Shown here: positions 1 through 43,604 of the stretch, piece after piece
How the letters are laid out: each line of letters opens with the position of its first letter
Position numbering within the stretch: position 1 is the stretch's first letter
Source: an uncultured Flavobacteriales bacterium
GTDB lineage: Bacteria; Bacteroidota; Bacteroidia; CAIKAF01
Reading direction: 5' to 3'
DNA: 44,065 nucleotides
Assembly: GCA_937925455.1 (NCBI GenBank)
Contig: CALEWF010000056.1
Span: forward strand, 1 to 44,065
Position numbers and translations under genes: made by a program
Notes under the pieces: model-generated
What the model was told of the DNA's origin: nothing
Databases searched by the model: none
The model's input: only the letters and a program-made list of their open reading frames with translations

Positions 1-30
1 TTACAACTTTAAATCAACTCATCTTCAAAT

Positions 31-176
31 CTGCTGCGGATGGTAGTGGAAAGCCCGGAGGGGCGAAGCCCACAGGGCACGGGGTAGCGGGGCTGAGGGC
101 ACGAAGACACCGCTACCCCGATGCCCTGTGTGGCTGAGCCCCGAGGACTTGTAACGAACAGCCGCATAAAGCAGCC
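31..176 (-). repeat. GC-rich imperfect-palindrome intergenic repeat, copy A (146-nt core only, no 3' module)
   Basis: The reverse complement of 31-176 aligns base-for-base with 7056-7201, 15119-15263, 28517-28662 and rc(38384-38529), with only a few substitutions. It is strongly GC-rich against AT-rich flanks. Positions 1-30 show no similarity to the 3' module of the other copies. Confidence 0.9.
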
Positions 177-6826: not shown

Positions 6827-7055
6827 AATAGGTAACCACGGAAACCAAAAAATGTTTTAAAGTTTCCAAAGTTTTTAAAAGAATTTAAGAATTTAGAAAT
6901 ATTTCACCCTACTTTTTAGCTGGCAAGCAACAATGATTTAATAAATCTGAGGGAATTATTGAAAATAATTATCATGCGGATTTTTGAATGCATTAGATTT
7001 AAAAGAGCGTGATGAATTCAACTTACCCCATATTATGATTAAAAAATTTATATCA

Positions 7056-7240
7056 GGCTGCTTGGTGCGGCTGTCCGTTACAAGTCCTCGGGGCTCAGCC
7101 ACACATGGCATCGGGGTAGCGGTGTCTTCGTGCCCTCAGCCCCGCTACCCCGTGCCCTGTGGGCTTCGCCCCTGCGGGCTTTTCACTGCCATCCGCAGCA
7201 GTCTGCCTCTACGAGGCGGAGCAACACGTGTTAGCCCCTC
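7056..7240 (+). repeat. GC-rich imperfect-palindrome intergenic repeat, copy B (core 7056-7201 plus a shortened 39-nt 3' module)
   Basis: About 97% identical by eye to the copy D core. The 3' tail TCTGCCTCTACGAGGCGGAGCAACACGTGTTAGCCCCTC shares the CTACGAGGCG(G/A)AG..AACA..CCCCTC part of the module seen in copies C, D and E. Confidence 0.9.
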
Positions 7241-7328
7241 TATTTCTGTATTTTAAAATATTCTAAATGACAATTTGGGTATAAAATAAAAAAGGCGTTC
7301 AGCATATTAAAAAAAATGCATGCCAAAA

Positions 7329-8927
7329 TTAAACTATCGAAATCAGGGTTTTTAAATCTGCCAAGGTATTGGCTTCCTCTGCTTTTTTATCGGTACGCCA
7401 ACGAGCAATTCTTGGAAAGCGTAGTGCCACCCCGGATTTATGTCGGGTACTTGGTTGTATGCCTTCAAAGGCCAATTCAAATACCTGCACCGCTTCTACA
7501 CTGCGTACCGGTCCAAATTTTTCAATTGTATGTTGTTTTATCCATCGGTCTAATTGCAAAATTTCTTCATCTTTCAACCCGGAATATGCTTTGGCTATGG
7601 GAACCAATTTTCGTTGTTCGTCCCATACAGCAAATGTGTAATCAGTGTATAAACCAGCTCTTCTTCCATGCCCGGATTGCGCATAAATCATCACAGCATC
7701 AATGGTAAACGGATCTACTTTCCACTTCCACCAGCCTCCTTTTCTTCTTCCAGTACCATATACCGAATCGCGATGCTTTAGCATCAAACCTTCGCTCCCT
7801 TTTTCTGCTGATCGTTGTCTTTCTTGCAACAGAGATTCCCAAGAATCAGCAAAATATAATTCAGAGAGTTTTAATGTATTGGCATTGCATTGATGAACTA
7901 ATTCTTCTAATAATTTTTTTCTTTTCACCAAAGGTTCATTTCGAATATCCATACCCTGATGTTCCAATAAATCATAGGCCATCAGTATCACTGGTATTTC
8001 TTGCAACAGTTTTTTGCTGAGGGTTTTTCTGCCCATCCGCTTTTGTAAAAATTGAAAAGACAGGGGTTTATTATTTTGCCAAGCTAAGATCTCTCCATCA
8101 ATCACGGTGCCTGATGGAAGTTGAGATACCAGCGAATGAAATTCCGGATAGCGATCGGTAACCAACTCTTCGCCTCGTGTCCAAACATAAAGTTGGCCAT
8201 TTCGCACAATCAATTGTGCCCGAATGCCATCCCATTTGTGTTCTGCCAGCCAAGCAGAAGGGTTTTGCTGGATTTGTGAACTATCTTCCAGTGCATACGC
8301 CAAAAAAAACGGATAGGGTTTAGAAAGATGATCAGTGGCTTGAGGCTGCAGAATTAGTTGCTGAAATGTGGTGGTTCTAGGGTCCCAATTTCCCATCAAG
8401 CGGTGGGCGATGATATTTTCTTCCAGTTGAAATGCTTTTGAAATTGCTTTTATAAGCAACCCTTGTGAAACCCCAATACGCAGGCTTCCGGCACTAAGCT
8501 TGTTAAACAAGAATCGTTCGGTTTTGCTTAGTTGCTTCCACAAGGTAATGACTGCTGCTTCTTTGGCTTCTTCTGAATCAAGAGACTGGATATGAAACAC
8601 CTGTTGAATGGTGGTGGCCAATGAATTGGGTTGATGTGTTGGAACTTCCGGTTCGGGGATGATGCCAGCTAAGGTTTCGCCTAAATCGCCTACTGTATGC
8701 CAGGTAGCTTCCACCAACCATTGAGGCAAGCCGGCTGCACGAGCTGCCCAGTTTCTAAGTTGCGTGGTGTTGGCAATACGAGATGGTTTTCGTCCGGTAA
8801 ATAACGCGATGATCCAAAGCCGGTCTTCATCAGAAGCATGAGAGAGGTATTCAGCCAAGAGATTGATTTTTTCCTGGGTTTTGTTGGTTTGATCCAAGGC
8901 TTCAAACAAATCGGCAAAGGCTTTCAT
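7329..8927 (-). CDS. ATP-dependent DNA ligase (ligase-associated DNA damage response type)
   Basis: 532 aa. Adenylation motif I KxDG (AEHKWDGIRAQ) and an OB-fold C-terminus. Overlaps by 4 nt with the upstream MBL-fold exonuclease gene. Confidence 0.9.
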   Translation of the reverse strand: MKAFADLFEALDQTNKTQEKINLLAEYLSHASDEDRLWIIALFTGRKPSRIANTTQLRNWAARAAGLPQWLVEATWHTVGDLGETLAGIIPEPEVPTHQPNSLATTIQQVFHIQSLDSEEAKEAAVITLWKQLSKTERFLFNKLSAGSLRIGVSQGLLIKAISKAFQLEENIIAHRLMGNWDPRTTTFQQLILQPQATDHLSKPYPFFLAYALEDSSQIQQNPSAWLAEHKWDGIRAQLIVRNGQLYVWTRGEELVTDRYPEFHSLVSQLPSGTVIDGEILAWQNNKPLSFQFLQKRMGRKTLSKKLLQEIPVILMAYDLLEHQGMDIRNEPLVKRKKLLEELVHQCNANTLKLSELYFADSWESLLQERQRSAEKGSEGLMLKHRDSVYGTGRRKGGWWKWKVDPFTIDAVMIYAQSGHGRRAGLYTDYTFAVWDEQRKLVPIAKAYSGLKDEEILQLDRWIKQHTIEKFGPVRSVEAVQVFELAFEGIQPSTRHKSGVALRFPRIARWRTDKKAEEANTLADLKTLISIV

Positions 8928-14995: not shown

Positions 14996-15118
14996 ACCTT
15001 GTTATTAAACCATGATTATCAAAAAATGTTTTTTAAACCTACTACCTGTAAATAATATTACACTATTGTCCGAAATAAAATTTAATCTCCATGTTTTTAA
15101 TAGAATTTTTTATTATCA

Positions 15119-15319
15119 AGCTGCCTATGGGGCTGTCCGTTCCAAGTCCTCGGGGCTCAGCCACACAGGGCATCGGGGTAGCGGTGTCTTCGTGCCCTCA
15201 GCCCCGCTACCCCGTGCCCTGTGGGCTTCGCCCCTGTGGGCTTTCCACTTCCATCCGCAGCAGACGGGGAAACGGGTGAATCCGCCCCTACGAGGCGAAG
15301 GAACATGCGCCCCCCCTCC
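15119..15319 (+). repeat. GC-rich imperfect-palindrome intergenic repeat, copy C (core 15119-15263 plus a 56-nt 3' module)
   Basis: The core aligns to copy D with about 7 differences, including a 1-nt deletion near the 5' end. The 3' module is ACGGGGAAACGGGTGAATCCGCCCCTACGAGGCGAAGGAACATGCGCCCCCCCTCC. Confidence 0.9.
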
Positions 15320-15381
15320 AATAAAAATTTGAATAAAAATGTTATTCCGTAAAATAATAAAAAATAGCTGAGATGAACATT

Positions 15382-16263
15382 TTAATAAAGTTCATCTACT
15401 TTAAGTTTCAGAAATTTTCTTACAGATAGGTAGGTGCTAAGATAGCTAATCATAACTCCCAGCCCCGCTATTAAACCAAATAATATCAATAAGTATCCCC
15501 AGTCGGTTATTCCAAGCGAATAATCAAATCGTTGCGACAAGTAAATGATTAGTACTGTTAACAAAATAATGGCTAATAAACCGGCTATGAAACCTTGAAG
15601 AATACCGGTTATTAAAAAAGGTTTTCTGATAAATGAGGCTGTGGCTCCAACTAATTGCATGGTTTTAATGGTAAATCGCTTGGAATAGATGGCTAGCCGA
15701 ATGGTGTTGTTAATGAGTGCTACCATGATTATTCCCAGTAATAAACTAATGCCTAGTAAAATCCATTGAATTTTTTCGGTATTGGCATTTACATCCCGAA
15801 TGAGGTTTTCATCTTTGCTGATACCGCGTATCCATTCACCGTAATCATCCAAAATTTTGTTTTCGATGAAATTCATGCTTTCAACATCAGTAAATTCAGC
15901 TTTCAGGGTTAATTCAATGGTGTATCCCAGGGGATTGAATCCAAGGACGGTGGTAGGGTCTTCGTTCCAGGTTTTTTTAAATTCTTCCAATGCTTCATCT
16001 GGTGTAATTAATACGGCCCGTTTAGTAAACTCCCGGGTTTGAAGTCCCATTCGGATTTCTTCTGCTGTTTCGCCATCTGTTTCACTGTTTAGGCCAATTT
16101 GCAGTTTCAGATTTTCCTTCACGTAGGTGGTGAGTTTTCCGGCAGATAGCAAAATGGTGCCAATTAATCCCAATACAAAAAGCACCAAGGTAATACTAAC
16201 TACCGAGGTAATGTATGCCATGCGTAATCTTCGCCGGTTAAATTGTTCTTCCCTCTTTCCCAT
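15382..16263 (-). CDS. ftsX: Cell division protein FtsX-like permease
   Basis: One TM helix, a periplasmic domain, then three C-terminal TM helices (FtsX topology). Start set at the ATG at 16263 (MGKREEQFNRRR). An in-frame GTG at 16347 is an alternative start. Confidence 0.75.
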   Translation of the reverse strand: MGKREEQFNRRRLRMAYITSVVSITLVLFVLGLIGTILLSAGKLTTYVKENLKLQIGLNSETDGETAEEIRMGLQTREFTKRAVLITPDEALEEFKKTWNEDPTTVLGFNPLGYTIELTLKAEFTDVESMNFIENKILDDYGEWIRGISKDENLIRDVNANTEKIQWILLGISLLLGIIMVALINNTIRLAIYSKRFTIKTMQLVGATASFIRKPFLITGILQGFIAGLLAIILLTVLIIYLSQRFDYSLGITDWGYLLILFGLIAGLGVMISYLSTYLSVRKFLKLKVDELY

Positions 16264-19054: not shown

Positions 19055-20245
19055 TTAAGAAATAACATTCATTGCTTTTCCTACTTTAATAAAGGCAGCA
19101 ATGGCTTTATCCAAATGTTCTTTGGTGTGTGCAGCAGAAAGTTGAACACGAATACGCGCCTGACCTTTGGGTACTACTGGATAAAAGAAACCAATTACAT
19201 AAATACCTTCTTCAAGTAAGGCATCGGCAAATTCCTGAGAAAGCTTTGCATCATAAAGCATAATAGGAACGATGGCTGAATCACCGTCTTTAATGTCGAA
19301 ACCAGCTTTTTTAATTTCCTGTTTGAAATAACGGATATTTTCTTCCAGGCGGTCGCGTAATTCAGTGGTTTCGCTCAACATATCAAATACGGCAATAGAA
19401 GCGCCCACAATATGTGGAGCTAAGGAGTTTGAGAAAAGGTAAGGGCGTGAACGCTGGCGTAGCATTTCAATAATTTCTTTTTTTCCGGTGGTAAACCCGC
19501 CCATAGCTCCACCTAAAGCTTTCCCTAAGGTGCCGGTAATGATATCTACCCGGTGCATTACATTTTTAAGCTCTACCGTTCCTCTGCCAGTTTTACCGAT
19601 AAATCCGGTAGCATGGCTTTCATCTACCATTACTAATGCATTGTATTTTTCAGCTAAATCACAAATTTTATCTAGAGGAGCTACAAAACCATCCATTGAA
19701 AATACTCCATCCGTTACAATGATGCGAAACCGATGTTTTTGTGCTTCTTTGAGTTTTTCTTCCAAATCCTGCATGTCGCAATTTTTATAACGGTAGCGAT
19801 GTGCTTTGCATAAACGCACGCCATCAATGATGGAAGCATGGTTTAATTCATCTGAAATAATTGCATCTTCTTCTCCAAATAGTGGTTCAAATACACCCCC
19901 ATTGGCATCAAAGCAAGCTGCATACAGGATAGTATCTTCTTGACCGAGAAATTCAGCAATCTTGCGTTCTAATTCTTTATGTATATCCTGTGTACCGCAA
20001 ATAAAACGTACACTCGACATGCCATATCCATGCTTATCTAAGGTTTTATGTGCCGCTTCTATCACCTTAGGGTGTGAAGAAAGTCCAAGATAATTGTTGG
20101 CACAAAATATTAATACTTTCTTTCCGTTTTGCAGCGTTACCTCCGGGCCTTGCTCGCTGGTAATAATTCGTTCACGTTTAAATAAACCTGCTTCTTCTAT
20201 GCATTGAAGTTCTTGAGTAAGGTGTTGTTTGAATGCTCCGTACAT
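19055..20245 (-). CDS. kbl: Glycine C-acetyltransferase (2-amino-3-ketobutyrate CoA ligase)
   Basis: About 397 aa from MYGAFKQHL. PLP-dependent alpha-oxoamine synthase signatures (DESHATGFIG, GTLGKALGG). Confidence 0.9.
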   Translation of the reverse strand: MYGAFKQHLTQELQCIEEAGLFKRERIITSEQGPEVTLQNGKKVLIFCANNYLGLSSHPKVIEAAHKTLDKHGYGMSSVRFICGTQDIHKELERKIAEFLGQEDTILYAACFDANGGVFEPLFGEEDAIISDELNHASIIDGVRLCKAHRYRYKNCDMQDLEEKLKEAQKHRFRIIVTDGVFSMDGFVAPLDKICDLAEKYNALVMVDESHATGFIGKTGRGTVELKNVMHRVDIITGTLGKALGGAMGGFTTGKKEIIEMLRQRSRPYLFSNSLAPHIVGASIAVFDMLSETTELRDRLEENIRYFKQEIKKAGFDIKDGDSAIVPIMLYDAKLSQEFADALLEEGIYVIGFFYPVVPKGQARIRVQLSAAHTKEHLDKAIAAFIKVGKAMNVIS

Positions 20246-20296
20246 AATACAATGCTTGATGGATACAAAAGTACATTTATTCATGAATGCTGAAAA

Positions 20297-20326
20297 TAAA
20301 AAAGCCCTGACCGGCAGGGCTTTTTT
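20297..20326 (-). terminator. Bidirectional rho-independent terminator
   Basis: AAAAAA-GCCCTG-ACCGG-CAGGGC-TTTTTT (stem 20304-20309 / 20315-20320). It begins 19 nt after the stop of the 20345-21199 gene. Confidence 0.8.
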
Positions 20327-20344
20327 ATAAGTTCATTGTTTTGA

Positions 20345-21199
20345 TTAATTGGGAGTAGCATTTACAAAATCCCAATTTGCACCGTTTTTTTTCCAGATAA
20401 TACTAATTACTTCCAGTTCATTAACTTTCCAATTTGACTCTAATGGCACTACATATCCTTTATGAAAAATATCACCAGCAGATGCGCCACTTGTAGTAAT
20501 AGTTTCACCCCATGGATCTTCACCGGCAAAGCCTAACAATACCTTGTGGTGTTCAAATTCATTGATGTAATTGTCTCCTACTTGTTGTGGTGCAATTACT
20601 TTTTTAGCAATTAAATAGACTCCCATTTTATATTCCCCACTTAAGTTGCTAAATGCTTTGGCATAGGCATTTATATTTATTTTACCTGAATTAGCGCCAC
20701 CACCTACAGTCCAATGCACCCCTGTGCCTATGGTAGGAGTGGTTGATATAATTGAATTAATTTCATTAGAGGCTTGACCTAAGTTTTGATCTACATAAGT
20801 GTTATTTGCTACAAAAGTGGGGGTACCATTGTAGTCCCATCGGGCTGAAAAAGCATCATATACCGGAGAATTTCGAGGAGTAGTTAAATCATCATTCGTT
20901 TGTATAGTAAATGCTACAATATTTCCTTTATTATTTTCATAAAATTGATTGAAAGCATTCATGCCAAAACTCCCACATGCAAAACACCAGGTTGCCGTGT
21001 ATTTAAAAAACATACCATTTTGTTTAGTAGGAATAATTACACAACTACCATCATCAACATTAGCCGATGGATTGAAGTTAACAGCATCAGCATTTAAGCA
21101 GCCTCTTATAGGTTCTGAATTGTTTTCGGGAGCACAGGATGTTAAAAATGTAATTACTGTTACAATTATAACATTTACAATTGATTTATTAGTTTTCAT
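20345..21199 (-). CDS. Lipoprotein with thioredoxin-like CxxC motif (possibly Omp28-related)
   Basis: 284 aa. Lipobox (FLTSC), a GC..DA.NFNP.A..DDGSC motif common in Bacteroidota surface proteins, and WCFACG. The family assignment is from memory only. Confidence 0.35.
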   Translation of the reverse strand: MKTNKSIVNVIIVTVITFLTSCAPENNSEPIRGCLNADAVNFNPSANVDDGSCVIIPTKQNGMFFKYTATWCFACGSFGMNAFNQFYENNKGNIVAFTIQTNDDLTTPRNSPVYDAFSARWDYNGTPTFVANNTYVDQNLGQASNEINSIISTTPTIGTGVHWTVGGGANSGKININAYAKAFSNLSGEYKMGVYLIAKKVIAPQQVGDNYINEFEHHKVLLGFAGEDPWGETITTSGASAGDIFHKGYVVPLESNWKVNELEVISIIWKKNGANWDFVNATPN

Positions 21200-28516: not shown

Positions 28517-28718
28517 GGCTGCTTAATGCGGCTGTCCGTTACAAGTCCTCGGGGCTCAGCCACACAGGGCATCGGGGTAGCGGTGTCTTCGTGCCCTCAG
28601 CCCCGCTACCCCGTGCCCTGTGGGCTTCGCCCCTGCGGGCTTTCCACTGCCATCCGCAGCAGATGGGGCAGCGGGTGAATTCACCCCTACCAGAGAGAGA
28701 AACACACGGTTGCCCCCC
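28517..28718 (+). repeat. GC-rich imperfect-palindrome intergenic repeat, copy D (core 28517-28662 plus a 56-nt 3' module)
   Basis: Used as the reference copy. The central stem pairs 28560-28583 with 28603-28624 (about 23 bp with two 1-nt bulges), and the outer arms pair in nearly constant register. It sits between the convergent addB-like and pth genes. Confidence 0.9.
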
Positions 28719-28737
28719 TTAAAAAACCTATGAAAAT

Positions 28738-33813: not shown

Positions 33814-34908
33814 ATGAAAAGAATATGGTTTTGTTTGAGTTTATTGTTGGTTGCTTTACCGGCTACTGCCTGGTTACAAACCGGCGAATTAACATTGGTT
33901 GTTGATTCTGCTCTTGGATTAAATCCGGATGCTCAACGATTGTATAATGAAGGCATTTCGGCTTTTGAATCGAATAGATTGGATGATGCGGCACAGAAGT
34001 TTACGGAAGCCATCCAATTAGAGCCCAAATTTGAAAAAGCTTATCTAAACCGAGGTAAGGTATATATTCAACAAGCGAAGTGGGATTTGGCATTGCAAGA
34101 TTTAGATAAAGTCATTGAATTAAATCCCAATGCGGCAAATGCTTATGAGCTGAAAGCGCAGGTTTATGTAGAAAAAGGAGATAAAGAGTCAGCAATTGCT
34201 GCTTATACACAAGCCTTGTCAAAACCGGATGCACCTGCTGCCCTTTATTATCAGCGGGGTATGCTGTATTTTGAAATGCAAAAAAACGAGGAAGCCATCA
34301 AAGATTTGGATATGTGCATTCAAAAAGATCCGGAAAATGCTGTAGCCTATAATGACCGGGGTAGTATAAAATGGAAGGCAGGAAAATTAGATGAAGCATT
34401 GCTTGACTATCAAACCGCCGTTAAAAAAGACCCTAAATTGGTTTTTGCCTATAACAATCGGGGAAGTTTATTGCGTGAAAAAGGAGATTATGCCGGCTCT
34501 ATTAAAGCTTACAACGAAGCATTGATGGTAAAGAAAGATTATTACATAGCCTTGAATAATAGAGGCTTAGCCTATTTTGCCTGGGGAAAATATGACGAAG
34601 CCCTAAAAGACTTTAATGAAGTATTAAAAATAAAACCTGATTATGTATATGCATTAAATAATCGGGCTGCAGTGTATATTAAACAAAAAAAATACAACGA
34701 GGCGGTAGCCGATTGTGATAAAGCCATCTCTATGGATAAAAATTATGGGGACGCTTATCTTAACCGGGGAATAGCTAAAGAAATGTTGAGGCAAGAAGAG
34801 CAAGCTTGCAATGACTGGTTGCAGGCAGCTTCATTAGGAGTTAGCAGCGCTGAAATTTATTATAATTCAGGACCGTGTGCAGAAATAGAACGATATAAAA
34901 ACAAATAA
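33814..34908 (+). CDS. Tetratricopeptide (TPR) repeat protein, secreted
   Basis: Signal peptide followed by about 8 consecutive 34-aa TPR units (A..YN.RG..... G.YD.A..D...A....P). ATG at 33814; the track ORF starts at a GTG at 33808. Confidence 0.85.
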   Translation: MKRIWFCLSLLLVALPATAWLQTGELTLVVDSALGLNPDAQRLYNEGISAFESNRLDDAAQKFTEAIQLEPKFEKAYLNRGKVYIQQAKWDLALQDLDKVIELNPNAANAYELKAQVYVEKGDKESAIAAYTQALSKPDAPAALYYQRGMLYFEMQKNEEAIKDLDMCIQKDPENAVAYNDRGSIKWKAGKLDEALLDYQTAVKKDPKLVFAYNNRGSLLREKGDYAGSIKAYNEALMVKKDYYIALNNRGLAYFAWGKYDEALKDFNEVLKIKPDYVYALNNRAAVYIKQKKYNEAVADCDKAISMDKNYGDAYLNRGIAKEMLRQEEQACNDWLQAASLGVSSAEIYYNSGPCAEIERYKNK

Positions 34909-38280: not shown

Positions 38281-38327
38281 TTAAACTCCAGGAAGTCATT
38301 AGAATTTTTATACTGATATAGAGTTTA

Positions 38328-38529
38328 GAGGGGGCGGTCGCATGTTTCTCCGCCTCGTAGGGCGGATACACCCGCTGTCCCGCCTGCTGCGGATGGAAGT
38401 GGAAAGCCCGCAGGGGCGAAGCCCACAGGCCACGGGATAGCGGGGCTGAGGGCACGAAGACACCGCTATTCCGATGCCCTGTGTGGCTGAGCCCCGAGGA
38501 CTTGTAACGTACAGCCGCACCAAGCAGCC
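38328..38529 (-). repeat. GC-rich imperfect-palindrome intergenic repeat, copy E (core 38384-38529, 3' module 38328-38383)
   Basis: The reverse complement aligns to copy D over the full length with about 8 core substitutions, some of them paired across the hairpin. Confidence 0.9.
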
Positions 38530-38807
38530 TAATATCAATAGTTTAGTGACAATATTGGGTTAATAACAATAACAATATTCCTGACCATAGATAGAGTGAT
38601 TTCTTAGTTGGTAAAAGCTATTTTAACGTGCAAAAAAATGGATAAAATTTTTTTAGGCTAAAAAAATGATTTTGGGGGTAATTTTAATATGTATGTGCTT
38701 AAATTTCAATAATATATGACAAAAACTGCTAATGGTTGCCTTTAGAAATTTCTCCTAATAACAAGGGGGGGGTTATGCCGCCTTTTCCTTTTTTTAAGCT
38801 ATCCTGT

Positions 38808-42809: not shown

Positions 42810-43604
42810 ATGTTAGAACTCAATAAAGTTTATCAAGGCGACTCTCTAAAACTTGTTGACCAGTTAGATAACGAAAGTGTTGATTTGATAGTTTGTGACG
42901 GACCTTACGGTGTTACAACAAATCAATGGGATAAAGTCACAGACATTCAAACCTACAACTTAAATCTCATTAAAATTTTTTCAAGAATCTTGAAACCTGG
43001 GGGAGCATTATATCTATTTGGCAAAGATGATTGTATAGATTTTATTGATTATAGACCGTATTTGCAATTGAATAGAAAAATAATTTGGTATCAACCCAGT
43101 CGTTTAGCACAAGGCAGGCTAAACTATACCAACAACTATGATTTAATTGCCTACTTTTCTAAAGGGAAAGCCAAAACTTTTAATCTTGACGATATACGAG
43201 TTCCTCAATTAGTAGAACTAGAACATAGGCTACGGTGTGAAAAAGTGCCATCTGTTACAAATGGGCAATATGGCAAAACGAAATTTAACGAAGATGGGAA
43301 GAATCCTGGCGATGTATGGGGAGATATTAAGCAACTAACCTACAAGTCTAAGGAGTTGATTAGCAGGGAATTATTGAACACTATTCAAAAACCTGAAAAA
43401 CTAATTGAAAGAATTGTAAAAGCCAGCTCTAACGAAGGAGATGTTGTATTAGACCCATTTTCTGGTGTGGGAACTACTTTTGCCGTTTGCAAGCGGTTAA
43501 ACAGAAACTTCATTGGTTTTGAAATCAATCCCGAATATATTGAAATAACAAATGAAAGAGTTCGTAAAATTGAAATAGAACAAGAATACAGTTTATTCCG
43601 ATGA
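42810..43604 (+). CDS. Type II DNA methyltransferase, beta-class N6A/N4C (N6_N4_Mtase family)
   Basis: 264 aa. Motif IV-like DLIVCDGPYG lies N-terminal and motif I VLDPFSGVGTT lies C-terminal (the beta-class order), with a QKPEKLIERIV motif. Its stop overlaps the next ORF's ATG (ATGA). Confidence 0.85.
   Translation: MLELNKVYQGDSLKLVDQLDNESVDLIVCDGPYGVTTNQWDKVTDIQTYNLNLIKIFSRILKPGGALYLFGKDDCIDFIDYRPYLQLNRKIIWYQPSRLAQGRLNYTNNYDLIAYFSKGKAKTFNLDDIRVPQLVELEHRLRCEKVPSVTNGQYGKTKFNEDGKNPGDVWGDIKQLTYKSKELISRELLNTIQKPEKLIERIVKASSNEGDVVLDPFSGVGTTFAVCKRLNRNFIGFEINPEYIEITNERVRKIEIEQEYSLFR

Follow-up and report, generated by a model that had tools for sequence, protein, structure and literature searches.

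What is the GC-rich repeat that occurs five times within 44 kb of bacterial DNA of about 38% GC, and do its two arms change together because they pair in a folded strand? The question is raised by contig CALEWF010000056.1 of an uncultured Flavobacteriales bacterium (assembly GCA_937925455.1), of which the whole stretch of 44,065 nucleotides was analysed (hereafter, the window). An earlier note on this DNA had described five copies (A to E) of a hairpin conserved in structure besides sequence, and had proposed three events of compensatory change between its arms, the main one at positions 20 and 133 of the core. A repeat search of the window confirmed that the five copies are real repeats, and every base and coordinate reported for them and for the three events was found to be correct. 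Our comparisons suggest that the core is a GC-rich, long-stem variant of the Flavo-1 motif (RF01705), carried by a dispersed, mosaic intergenic repeat of Bacteroidota, and our best guess is that it represents the protein-recognised folded strand of an element resembling miniature inverted-repeat transposable elements (MITEs) or repetitive extragenic palindromic (REP) sequences; to both parts jointly we assign a probability of about 0.6. The arms do maintain a hairpin, and positions 20/133 and 25/128 are its least constrained positions, the free centres of internal loops and not base pairs.

Pair numbers follow the earlier note, with copy D as reference and the pairs read on its "element strand" (here, the numbering strand), which in copy E is the minus strand; the Flavo-1 sense strand is the opposite one. 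The copies in the window are as follows:

Copy A: repeat 29-210, minus in the numbering frame; core 29..176, Flavo-1 sense plus, Flavo-1 score 25.2 bits; left inverted repeat at 187-206, and tandem 16-mers at 1-28 in place of the flanking module M2.
Copy B: repeat 7022-7265, plus in the numbering frame; core 7056..7203, Flavo-1 sense minus; inverted repeats at 7026-7045 and 7260-7280.
Copy C: repeat 15118-15327, plus in the numbering frame; core 15119..15265, Flavo-1 sense minus.
Copy D (reference): repeat 28517-28726, plus in the numbering frame; core 28517..28664, Flavo-1 sense minus, Flavo-1 score 25.6 bits on the minus strand.
Copy E: repeat 38360-38560, minus in the numbering frame; core 38382..38529, an imperfect hairpin of 148 nt, Flavo-1 sense plus; sub-threshold Rfam match to Flavo-1 at 38377-38525, plus, 26.1 bits, E=0.0015, model positions 1-76 with a 78-nt insertion.

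At the gathering threshold, Rfam recognised only two tRNAs in the whole window. At relaxed thresholds, Flavo-1 was the sole consistent match, on the strand opposite to the numbering strand, and it covered the whole 76-position model, the insertion standing where the model has a loop of 7 nt. In Flavo-1 sense, the core is composed of P1, a conserved A.G, P2, a 3x3 loop GNA/GNA, P3, a second GNA/GNA loop and AAG/CUU; the outer ~35 nt on each side are homologous to Flavo-1, and the inner 78 nt form a long distal stem with an invariant loop. The stems P1 (3 bp), P2 (2 bp) and P3 (2 bp) stand in the family register on one strand and are 98-100% paired, and in the 65 published Flavo-1 sequences that served as comparison family (alignment of Weinberg et al., 2010, supplement of PMC2864571) they are essentially 100% Watson-Crick with abundant covariation. 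These published sequences also share the mismatches, with the conserved A.G in 60/65, the flanks of loop 1 as G.A in 63/64 and A.G in 56/64, and G.A in loop 2 in 60/64. The members of F. johnsoniae and F. psychrophilum read GGGAUA GAAGU GGAAAGCCCGCAG ... GCGAGGACUUGUAACGGAUAGCCC (PMC2864571) and the present element reads CGGAUG GNAGU GGAAAGCCCGCAG ... CCGAGGACUUGUAACGNACAGCCG; four of the six differences are accounted for by two compensatory changes, one in P1 (G:C to C:G) and one in P2 (A:U to G:C), and the F. johnsoniae segment GGAAAGCCCGCAG...CGAGGACUUGUAACGGAUAGCC is nearly identical to the outer module of the present element. Since the published alignment includes members of 142-149 nt (PMC2864571), a long distal stem lies within the range of Flavo-1.

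A covariance model built solely from long copies of the present element (R1; the 18 copies described below) also detected short hairpins in unrelated IMG/VR contigs with E=3-5e-5, in which 3-4 nt replace 79 model positions; these contigs had been fetched by a 21-nt pattern from the 3' module, so that independent evidence comes from the matching 5' half alone. The hairpin of one of them (L007) scored 32.3 bits against Rfam Flavo-1, also below the gathering score of 42, which indicates that this threshold excludes the entire sub-type. The short Flavo-1-type hairpins are located at L007:2926-2998, L008:2453-2525 and L010:2309-2380.

Flavo-1 was first catalogued in 2010 as an RNA motif without assigned function (Weinberg et al., 2010, PMC2864571), and it is among the most abundant small-RNA families (PMC9029176). 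The present core resembles it in the outer architecture, the A.G and GNA/GNA loops, a distal stem of variable length, a Bacteroidota host and many copies per genome; the gene content of the window includes type IX secretion CHU_C and Omp28, and its 44 kb hold five copies. Unlike the typical member, with its short and AT-rich distal stem, it has an inner part of 78 nt with 66% GC, conserved in sequence and ending in an invariant loop. Unlike Flavo-1 as described, it sits between AT-rich terminal inverted repeats with interchangeable modules, a setting for which no description was found in the Flavo-1 literature.

The conservation of the hairpin was assessed on 18 copies, the starting set of five plus 13 on contigs L001-L017. 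Additional copies were reached through spurious open reading frames (ORFs) annotated on the repeat by gene callers (P0001-P0014), the contigs of which gave nine further copies, plus one from P0001. Some copies, including the most diverged one (L002b), were retrieved by searching with the terminal-loop sequence itself, which affects the invariance of that loop, and P0002 is a protein-only copy with base states inferred from codons. All 18 copies are paralogous and come from one or few closely related populations in two ENA samples, ERZ6863929 and ERZ6864144, the source metagenome-assembled genomes of related contigs being titled Bacteroidales or Cytophagales. The copies were aligned as A4 and A5 (pair numbers are those of the numbering frame unless A5 is stated); pairing was evaluated by permutation against column compositions, and the whole structure against 500 shuffles and slid controls. 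The parts of the core concerned are, in copy E:

38396..38398, plus: 5' half of internal loop 1, G-A-A; centre 38397, position 133 of the numbering frame.
38509..38511, plus: 3' half of internal loop 1, G-T-A; centre 38510, position 20.
38401..38403, plus: 5' half of internal loop 2, G-G-A; centre 38402, position 128.
38504..38506, plus: 3' half of internal loop 2, G-T-A; centre 38505, position 25.
38443..38463, plus: terminal loop region GGCTGAGGGCACGAAGACACC, 21 nt, invariant in 18/18 copies.
38437..38470, plus: distal stem with changes private to copy E, pairs 61/93 and 60/94.

The proposal that the structure of the repeat is kept besides its sequence was borne out in this set. As seen in the folding check that had been suggested for it, as RNA and as single-stranded DNA (ssDNA), the core forms a single long imperfect hairpin on either strand and folds far better than shuffled sequence, with z-scores of -5.1 and -6.4 for RNA and of -4.2 to -7.1 for ssDNA; RNAalifold recovered the Flavo-1 helices unaided. 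With the Flavo-1-type structure on the sense strand, 98.8% of the cells were paired and eight pairs had changed on both sides, versus 1.6+-1.0 in shuffles (0/500) and 0-2 in slid controls. L002b supplies five of these eight double-changed pairs; in the same test without it, 98.9% of the cells were paired and four pairs had changed on both sides versus 1.3+-0.7 (0/500; slid controls 0-2). Pair 13/140, which is C:G in 13 copies, G:C in four and G/G in one (p=0.002), corresponds to the P1 pair whose covariation is seen family-wide (CG36/GC24/AU5), pair 7/142 is U:A in 14 copies and C:G in two (p=0.005), and pair 52/101 occurs as three pair types (G:C, C:G and U:A). In P0002, the inferred states are a change of C:G to T:A at 54/99 and an A at position 133.

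The second event of the earlier note, a change of GGGG to GGAA in copy E with one partner restored and one A left opposite a C, stood in its first half: pair 61/93 (38469 with 38437) underwent a genuine compensatory change from G:C to A:T, in a helix that covaries elsewhere. The adjacent 60/94 (38470) is indeed an unpaired A/C on the numbering strand, but on the Flavo-1 sense strand it is a G.U; in A5 numbering, the two changes appear as 56/88 (AU, one copy) and 55/89 (GU, one copy). In copy C, the 5' arm has states of subfamily 2 and the 3' arm those of subfamily 1; the copy appears to be a recombinant of the two rather than half-compensated, and such a chimeric origin would account for its mismatches, G/G at 13/140 and C/A at 7/142.

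The main event fared differently. In the window, 20/133 is C:G in copies D (28536/28649) and B (7075/7188), T:A in A, A:T in E (38510/38397) and C/T in C, that is, Watson-Crick in four of five copies with three identities. Among the 18 copies it is Watson-Crick in six, versus 4.2 expected (permutation p=0.20), with CG3, UG3, AU2, UA1 and GU1 and eight non-pairs (C/T in four, T/T in three and one C/C); when wobble is included, the counts are 10/18 on the numbering strand (p=0.076) and 6/18 on the Flavo-1 sense strand (p=0.32). Where minimum-energy folds contain 20/133 at all, it is an isolated pair between mismatches inside an internal loop; copies A and E fold without it, as does the opposite strand in every case. 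RNAalifold left both 20/133 and 25/128 unpaired, as do the Weinberg consensus line and the Rfam model. With more copies, 20 and 133 show no significant excess of complementary states, an outcome that the earlier note had itself named as contrary to its proposal. As for the third event, the change of C to T at position 128 in copy B is real, but the pairing excess at 25/128 is not significant: in Flavo-1 sense, 14/18 copies are canonical there versus 12.8 expected (p=0.26).

Four of the five highest diversities in the core belong to columns 20, 133, 128 and 25 (0.53-0.67 versus a mean of 0.077). Read in Flavo-1 sense, these columns form the middle of two 3x3 loops, 5'-G-N-A-3' opposite 5'-G-N-A-3', in which the flanking G and A, like the A of the conserved A.G, are invariant in 18/18 copies. 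In published Flavo-1, the loop-1 centre is Watson-Crick in 14/65 versus 17.4 expected, and the loop-2 centre is Watson-Crick in 19/61 and G.U in 17/61 versus 13.8 and 17.2 expected, at most an apparent, mild excess of Watson-Crick states. The reading of 20/133 and 25/128 as true pairs of a folded RNA or ssDNA, held complementary by selection or by templated repair of the arms, could draw on the three identities in the window, on the 14/18 canonical states at 25/128 and on the borderline count with T.G wobble on the numbering strand, which would fit a plausible path from C:G through T.G to T:A. Against the permutation results, the non-pairs, the loop-1 centre of the published family and three structures in which both positions are unpaired, this reading is largely refuted and highly improbable, and nothing demands the templated repair that had been put forward, besides selection, as the source of three Watson-Crick identities. 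The case calls for caution, since three such identities in five copies can arise at the two most variable, unpaired positions.

Regarding the strand, it is only opposite to the numbering strand that the conserved juxtapositions read G.A, and we therefore infer that the selected form is a folded single strand of that polarity. The gene arrangement is consistent with this. Copies occupy convergent, tandem and divergent intergenic regions, among ordinary housekeeping genes in the window; in the tandem contexts (B, C, E, L014a and L015), the strand that is transcribed has Flavo-1 sense in 5/5 (binomial p ~0.03, hand tally), and in 10/13 copies the sense strand has a co-directional gene on its 5' side (hand tally from gene positions). 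These counts are only suggestive of an orientation bias toward the Flavo-1 sense strand; the chief argument for a strand-specific form is the conserved asymmetry of the two arms at the G.A positions.

We propose, as a model, that the functional form would be the folded Flavo-1 sense strand, most probably RNA made by read-through from the neighbouring gene, in which the non-Watson-Crick outer helix and the invariant terminal loop would be bound by a protein. Such RNA could serve in cis for protein binding or for stability, in the manner of ERIC and REP elements, and the whole unit, with its terminal inverted repeats and interchangeable modules, would spread or recombine as a non-autonomous MITE/REP-like element; it may also be the ssDNA form that is recognised, during transposition or replication. 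The long variant adds to an abundant family a map of constraint, in which helices, G.A flanks and terminal loop are constrained and loop centres are free, as well as a likely functional strand with a bias in transcription orientation, and its modular context bounded by terminal inverted repeats suggests that the motif travels as a repeat element.

Several observations weigh against this proposal. The Flavo-1 scores of 25.2-26.1 bits (E=0.0015-0.0026 in local searches) remain below the gathering score. The covariation events are few, because the 18 copies represent one or few closely related populations, and five of them come from L002b, itself found through the loop sequence; there are also ~10-20 single-sided disruptions, including ~11 unpaired cells on the sense structure and more on that of the numbering strand. 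The orientation bias reaches only p ~0.03-0.05. Wobble counts (4 versus 2) do not discriminate the strands and were discarded as uninformative for that purpose, and U.G at 30/123 and 70/84 is fixed on the numbering strand. No target-site duplication is evident, the flanks of complete units having only TTA/TAA-like bases continuous with the inverted repeats; no cognate transposase was found among the window proteins, and no orthologous empty site among the compared loci. Flavo-1 matches in F. psychrophilum can be in sense or in antisense orientation to a transcript, and many of them are not transcribed (PMC9723704), which weakens an RNA-only reading.

Among the other explanations, one would dispense with selection altogether: in a recently amplified repeat, the covariation might reflect subfamily ancestry and a few lucky double hits. 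The copies are ~95% identical, the changes at 13/140 and 7/142 may each be a single inherited event, and related sequences can outscore all shuffles. Nevertheless, the architecture and heavy covariation hold across members from Flavobacteria, Bacteroidia and Spirochaetes, and P1 position 2 in the published alignment is GC28/UA16/CG15/AU6, Watson-Crick in 65/65. Within the present set, the variation of the core is clustered in a few unpaired columns while the 21-nt terminal loop is invariant, which is not a pattern of neutral decay, and the flanking modules appear more diverged than the core, as judged by eye; we consider this explanation extremely improbable. Hardly better are the prospects of a family of independently transcribed, trans-acting small RNA (sRNA) genes. 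Rfam places Flavo-1 in the class "Gene; sRNA" and, like Weinberg et al., lists it as an sRNA candidate, and the invariant terminal loop could serve as a seed; against this, the element behaves as a dispersed repeat, its five copies per 44 kb all standing between genes or 46-80 nt away from a stop codon, no promoter belonging to an individual copy was identified, and the hairpin is followed by no U-run terminator on either strand. The pattern of matches in F. psychrophilum is also more in keeping with a repeat element than with an sRNA gene. Intrinsic termination was likewise rejected as a function, with no T-run after the core on either strand in any copy, as judged without a dedicated terminator scan.

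A DNA-level palindrome, serving for transposase or recombinase recognition or as a cruciform, would need no RNA function, its arms being kept alike by gene conversion or by quasipalindrome correction, that is, intrastrand template switching. The terminal inverted repeats, the modular mosaic and the chimerism of copies such as C do point to mobility or recombination at the DNA level, ssDNA folds are as significant as RNA folds, copies are found in all three kinds of intergenic region, and many matches in F. psychrophilum are untranscribed (PMC9723704). However, neither a symmetric dimer nor correction toward a perfect palindrome would be expected to leave the asymmetries between the arms in place, and the G.A juxtapositions are conserved family-wide; nor is the 5/5 orientation in tandem contexts expected of a duplex signal. 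A purely DNA-level palindrome is unlikely in our judgement, and recognition of an ssDNA hairpin of the IS200/IS605 type, or of the type of REP-associated tyrosine transposases (RAYTs), may apply and overlaps with the folded strand of a MITE/REP-like element that we favour.

Extending that favoured reading, Flavo-1 as a whole might be the structured recognition module of an unrecognised class of mosaic mobile repeats in Bacteroidota, with terminal inverted repeats at their ends, and not an sRNA gene, a generalisation that is doubtful at present. A protein of the host or of the element would then read the purine-rich, non-Watson-Crick helix on one strand, either as RNA or as the ssDNA of transposition or replication, and the hypervariable loop centres would be either the only free positions or copy-specific determinants. 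Were this the case, short relatives near ArdC-like genes would hint at a role specific to single strands. The short hairpin of L010, the one annotated contig of the three, is intergenic, with an ArdC-like anti-restriction gene (ArdcN + MPTase-PolyVal) on one side and small genes of the opposite strand on the other; the locus resembles the leading region of a conjugative element.

Palindromic intergenic repeats that resemble MITEs and fold as RNA are known in other bacteria, such as ERIC/IRU in enterobacteria and Correia/NEMIS in Neisseria, which are co-transcribed with their neighbours and form long RNA hairpins. The present element is similar to them in being non-coding, in a size of 150-500 bp, in its terminal inverted repeats and in its intergenic position in either orientation, and, as in a MITE, a short non-coding unit is bounded by these terminal repeats. 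It differs in its unrelated sequence and in the lack of a visible target-site duplication or transposase, and the purine-purine loops and strand asymmetry of its core are not known from ERIC/IRU and Correia/NEMIS. With REP sequences and bacterial interspersed mosaic elements, it shares intergenic palindromic repeats arranged in mosaics and imperfect hairpins thought to be read as single strands, and a hairpin repeat (CGTCATTGCGA...) is a module inside some copies. REPs are 20-40 nt long with a terminal GTAG or CGTC tag, and CGTC-tagged REPs have been reported in Bacteroidetes (Di Nocera et al., 2013, PMC3733652). Membership in a REP/RAYT system was rejected, since the present core has 148 nt and no tag, and none of the 30 window proteins has a Y1 tyrosine transposase domain.

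In the orientation of the numbering frame, the unit consists of an AT-rich terminal inverted repeat (TCCCAAAATTGTCATTAGAAT), located 5-18 nt from the core, then the core, the interchangeable modules and the inverted terminal repeat. TCCCAAAATTGTCATTAGAAT was found at the left end and inverted at the right end of L002b, L014a, L016, L001 and B; its motif occurs 16 times in 114 kb versus 0.85 in shuffles, and 12/16 occurrences flank cores in the expected geometry. The AT-rich flank was also considered as an independent repeat or target site and was not found away from cores in the window. Complete units measure 257-364 nt (L002b, L014a and L016), and that of L011b is longer though ended by the contig edge. 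The corresponding features of copy E are:

38540..38559, minus: left-end terminal inverted repeat, AT-rich (CCCAATATTGTCACTAAACT).
38286..38305, plus: degenerate right-end inverted repeat with only GTCATTAGAAT kept; weak, 6 mismatches in 20; it abuts the CHASE2 stop codon.
38330..38376, minus: module M2, adjacent to the core; small hairpin (CCGCC...GGCGG), then a GCCCCC tract.

M2 (GGGCAGCGGGTGAATCCGCCCCTACGAGGCGGAG-AACACGCGACCGCCCCC) is present in C, D and E and truncated in B, and the other copies carry different modules instead: a TCCGCCC-N-GGGCGGA hairpin, tandem 16-mers (GATTTGAAGATGAGTT), AATTCGTAATTGAT repeats or the CGTCATTGCGA... hairpin repeat. In one subfamily, tandem GATTTGAAGATGAGTT arrays of 2-5 units replace or precede M2 at window:1-28 (ending at the window start), at L002:1-140 and beside the cores of L011, L013, L014, L016 and L017, and copies A and L002a carry the same GATTTGAAGATGAGTT variant at different genomic sites. 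Directly beyond the right inverted repeat, three copies share a further hairpin-containing repeat (TAGCACACGGATACNCGCTGATGCAACAGATGAACACAGATATNATCCGTGCCAATCCG; L002:2320-2400, L014:about 8480-8560 and L016:about 200-280), so that the outer boundary of the mosaic is uncertain. Copies C and L013, which have different neighbour genes, share ~60 nt of left flank past the inverted repeat (CACTATTGTCCGARATAAAATTTAAT; window:15087-15118 and L013:1617-1680); therefore, the unit of their subfamily reaches further left. A second repeat family, CGTCATTGCGACCCGCC...GGCGGG...AGCAATC, has several direct and inverted copies at L004:1715-1960, next to a small GIY-YIG gene, and also occurs within the elements of L013, L014 (about 8600-8700) and L016 (about 330-420); it resembles the CGTC-tagged REPs reported for Bacteroidetes (PMC3733652). 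Inverted-repeat pair I7 (15954-16000 / 34389-34435), with 70% complementarity, was treated as chance.

Regarding the wider distribution of the repeat, at least 13 copies lie on related contigs besides the five of the window, a scan of the genome collection with the loop sequence gave matches in at least two contigs, and short-read contigs end at the repeat (L005). The sole match of a metagenome scan with the translated stop-free frame was a false positive in a resolvase gene (L003); viral contigs scanned for the terminal-loop sequence gave no match, nor did plasmids searched by blastn, and the viral scan for the inverted-repeat motif returned one chance match within a coding region (L018). Two further loci of the window were noted. 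At 42810-43604 there is a gene for an N6/N4 DNA methyltransferase, with no obvious partner restriction gene in the window. At 20265-20354, sub-threshold Rfam matches to Thr_leader (28.9 bits, minus) and asX2 (plus) fall in a 60-nt gap upstream of a class I/II aminotransferase gene (19055-20284, minus), and this gap may hold a leader or attenuator.

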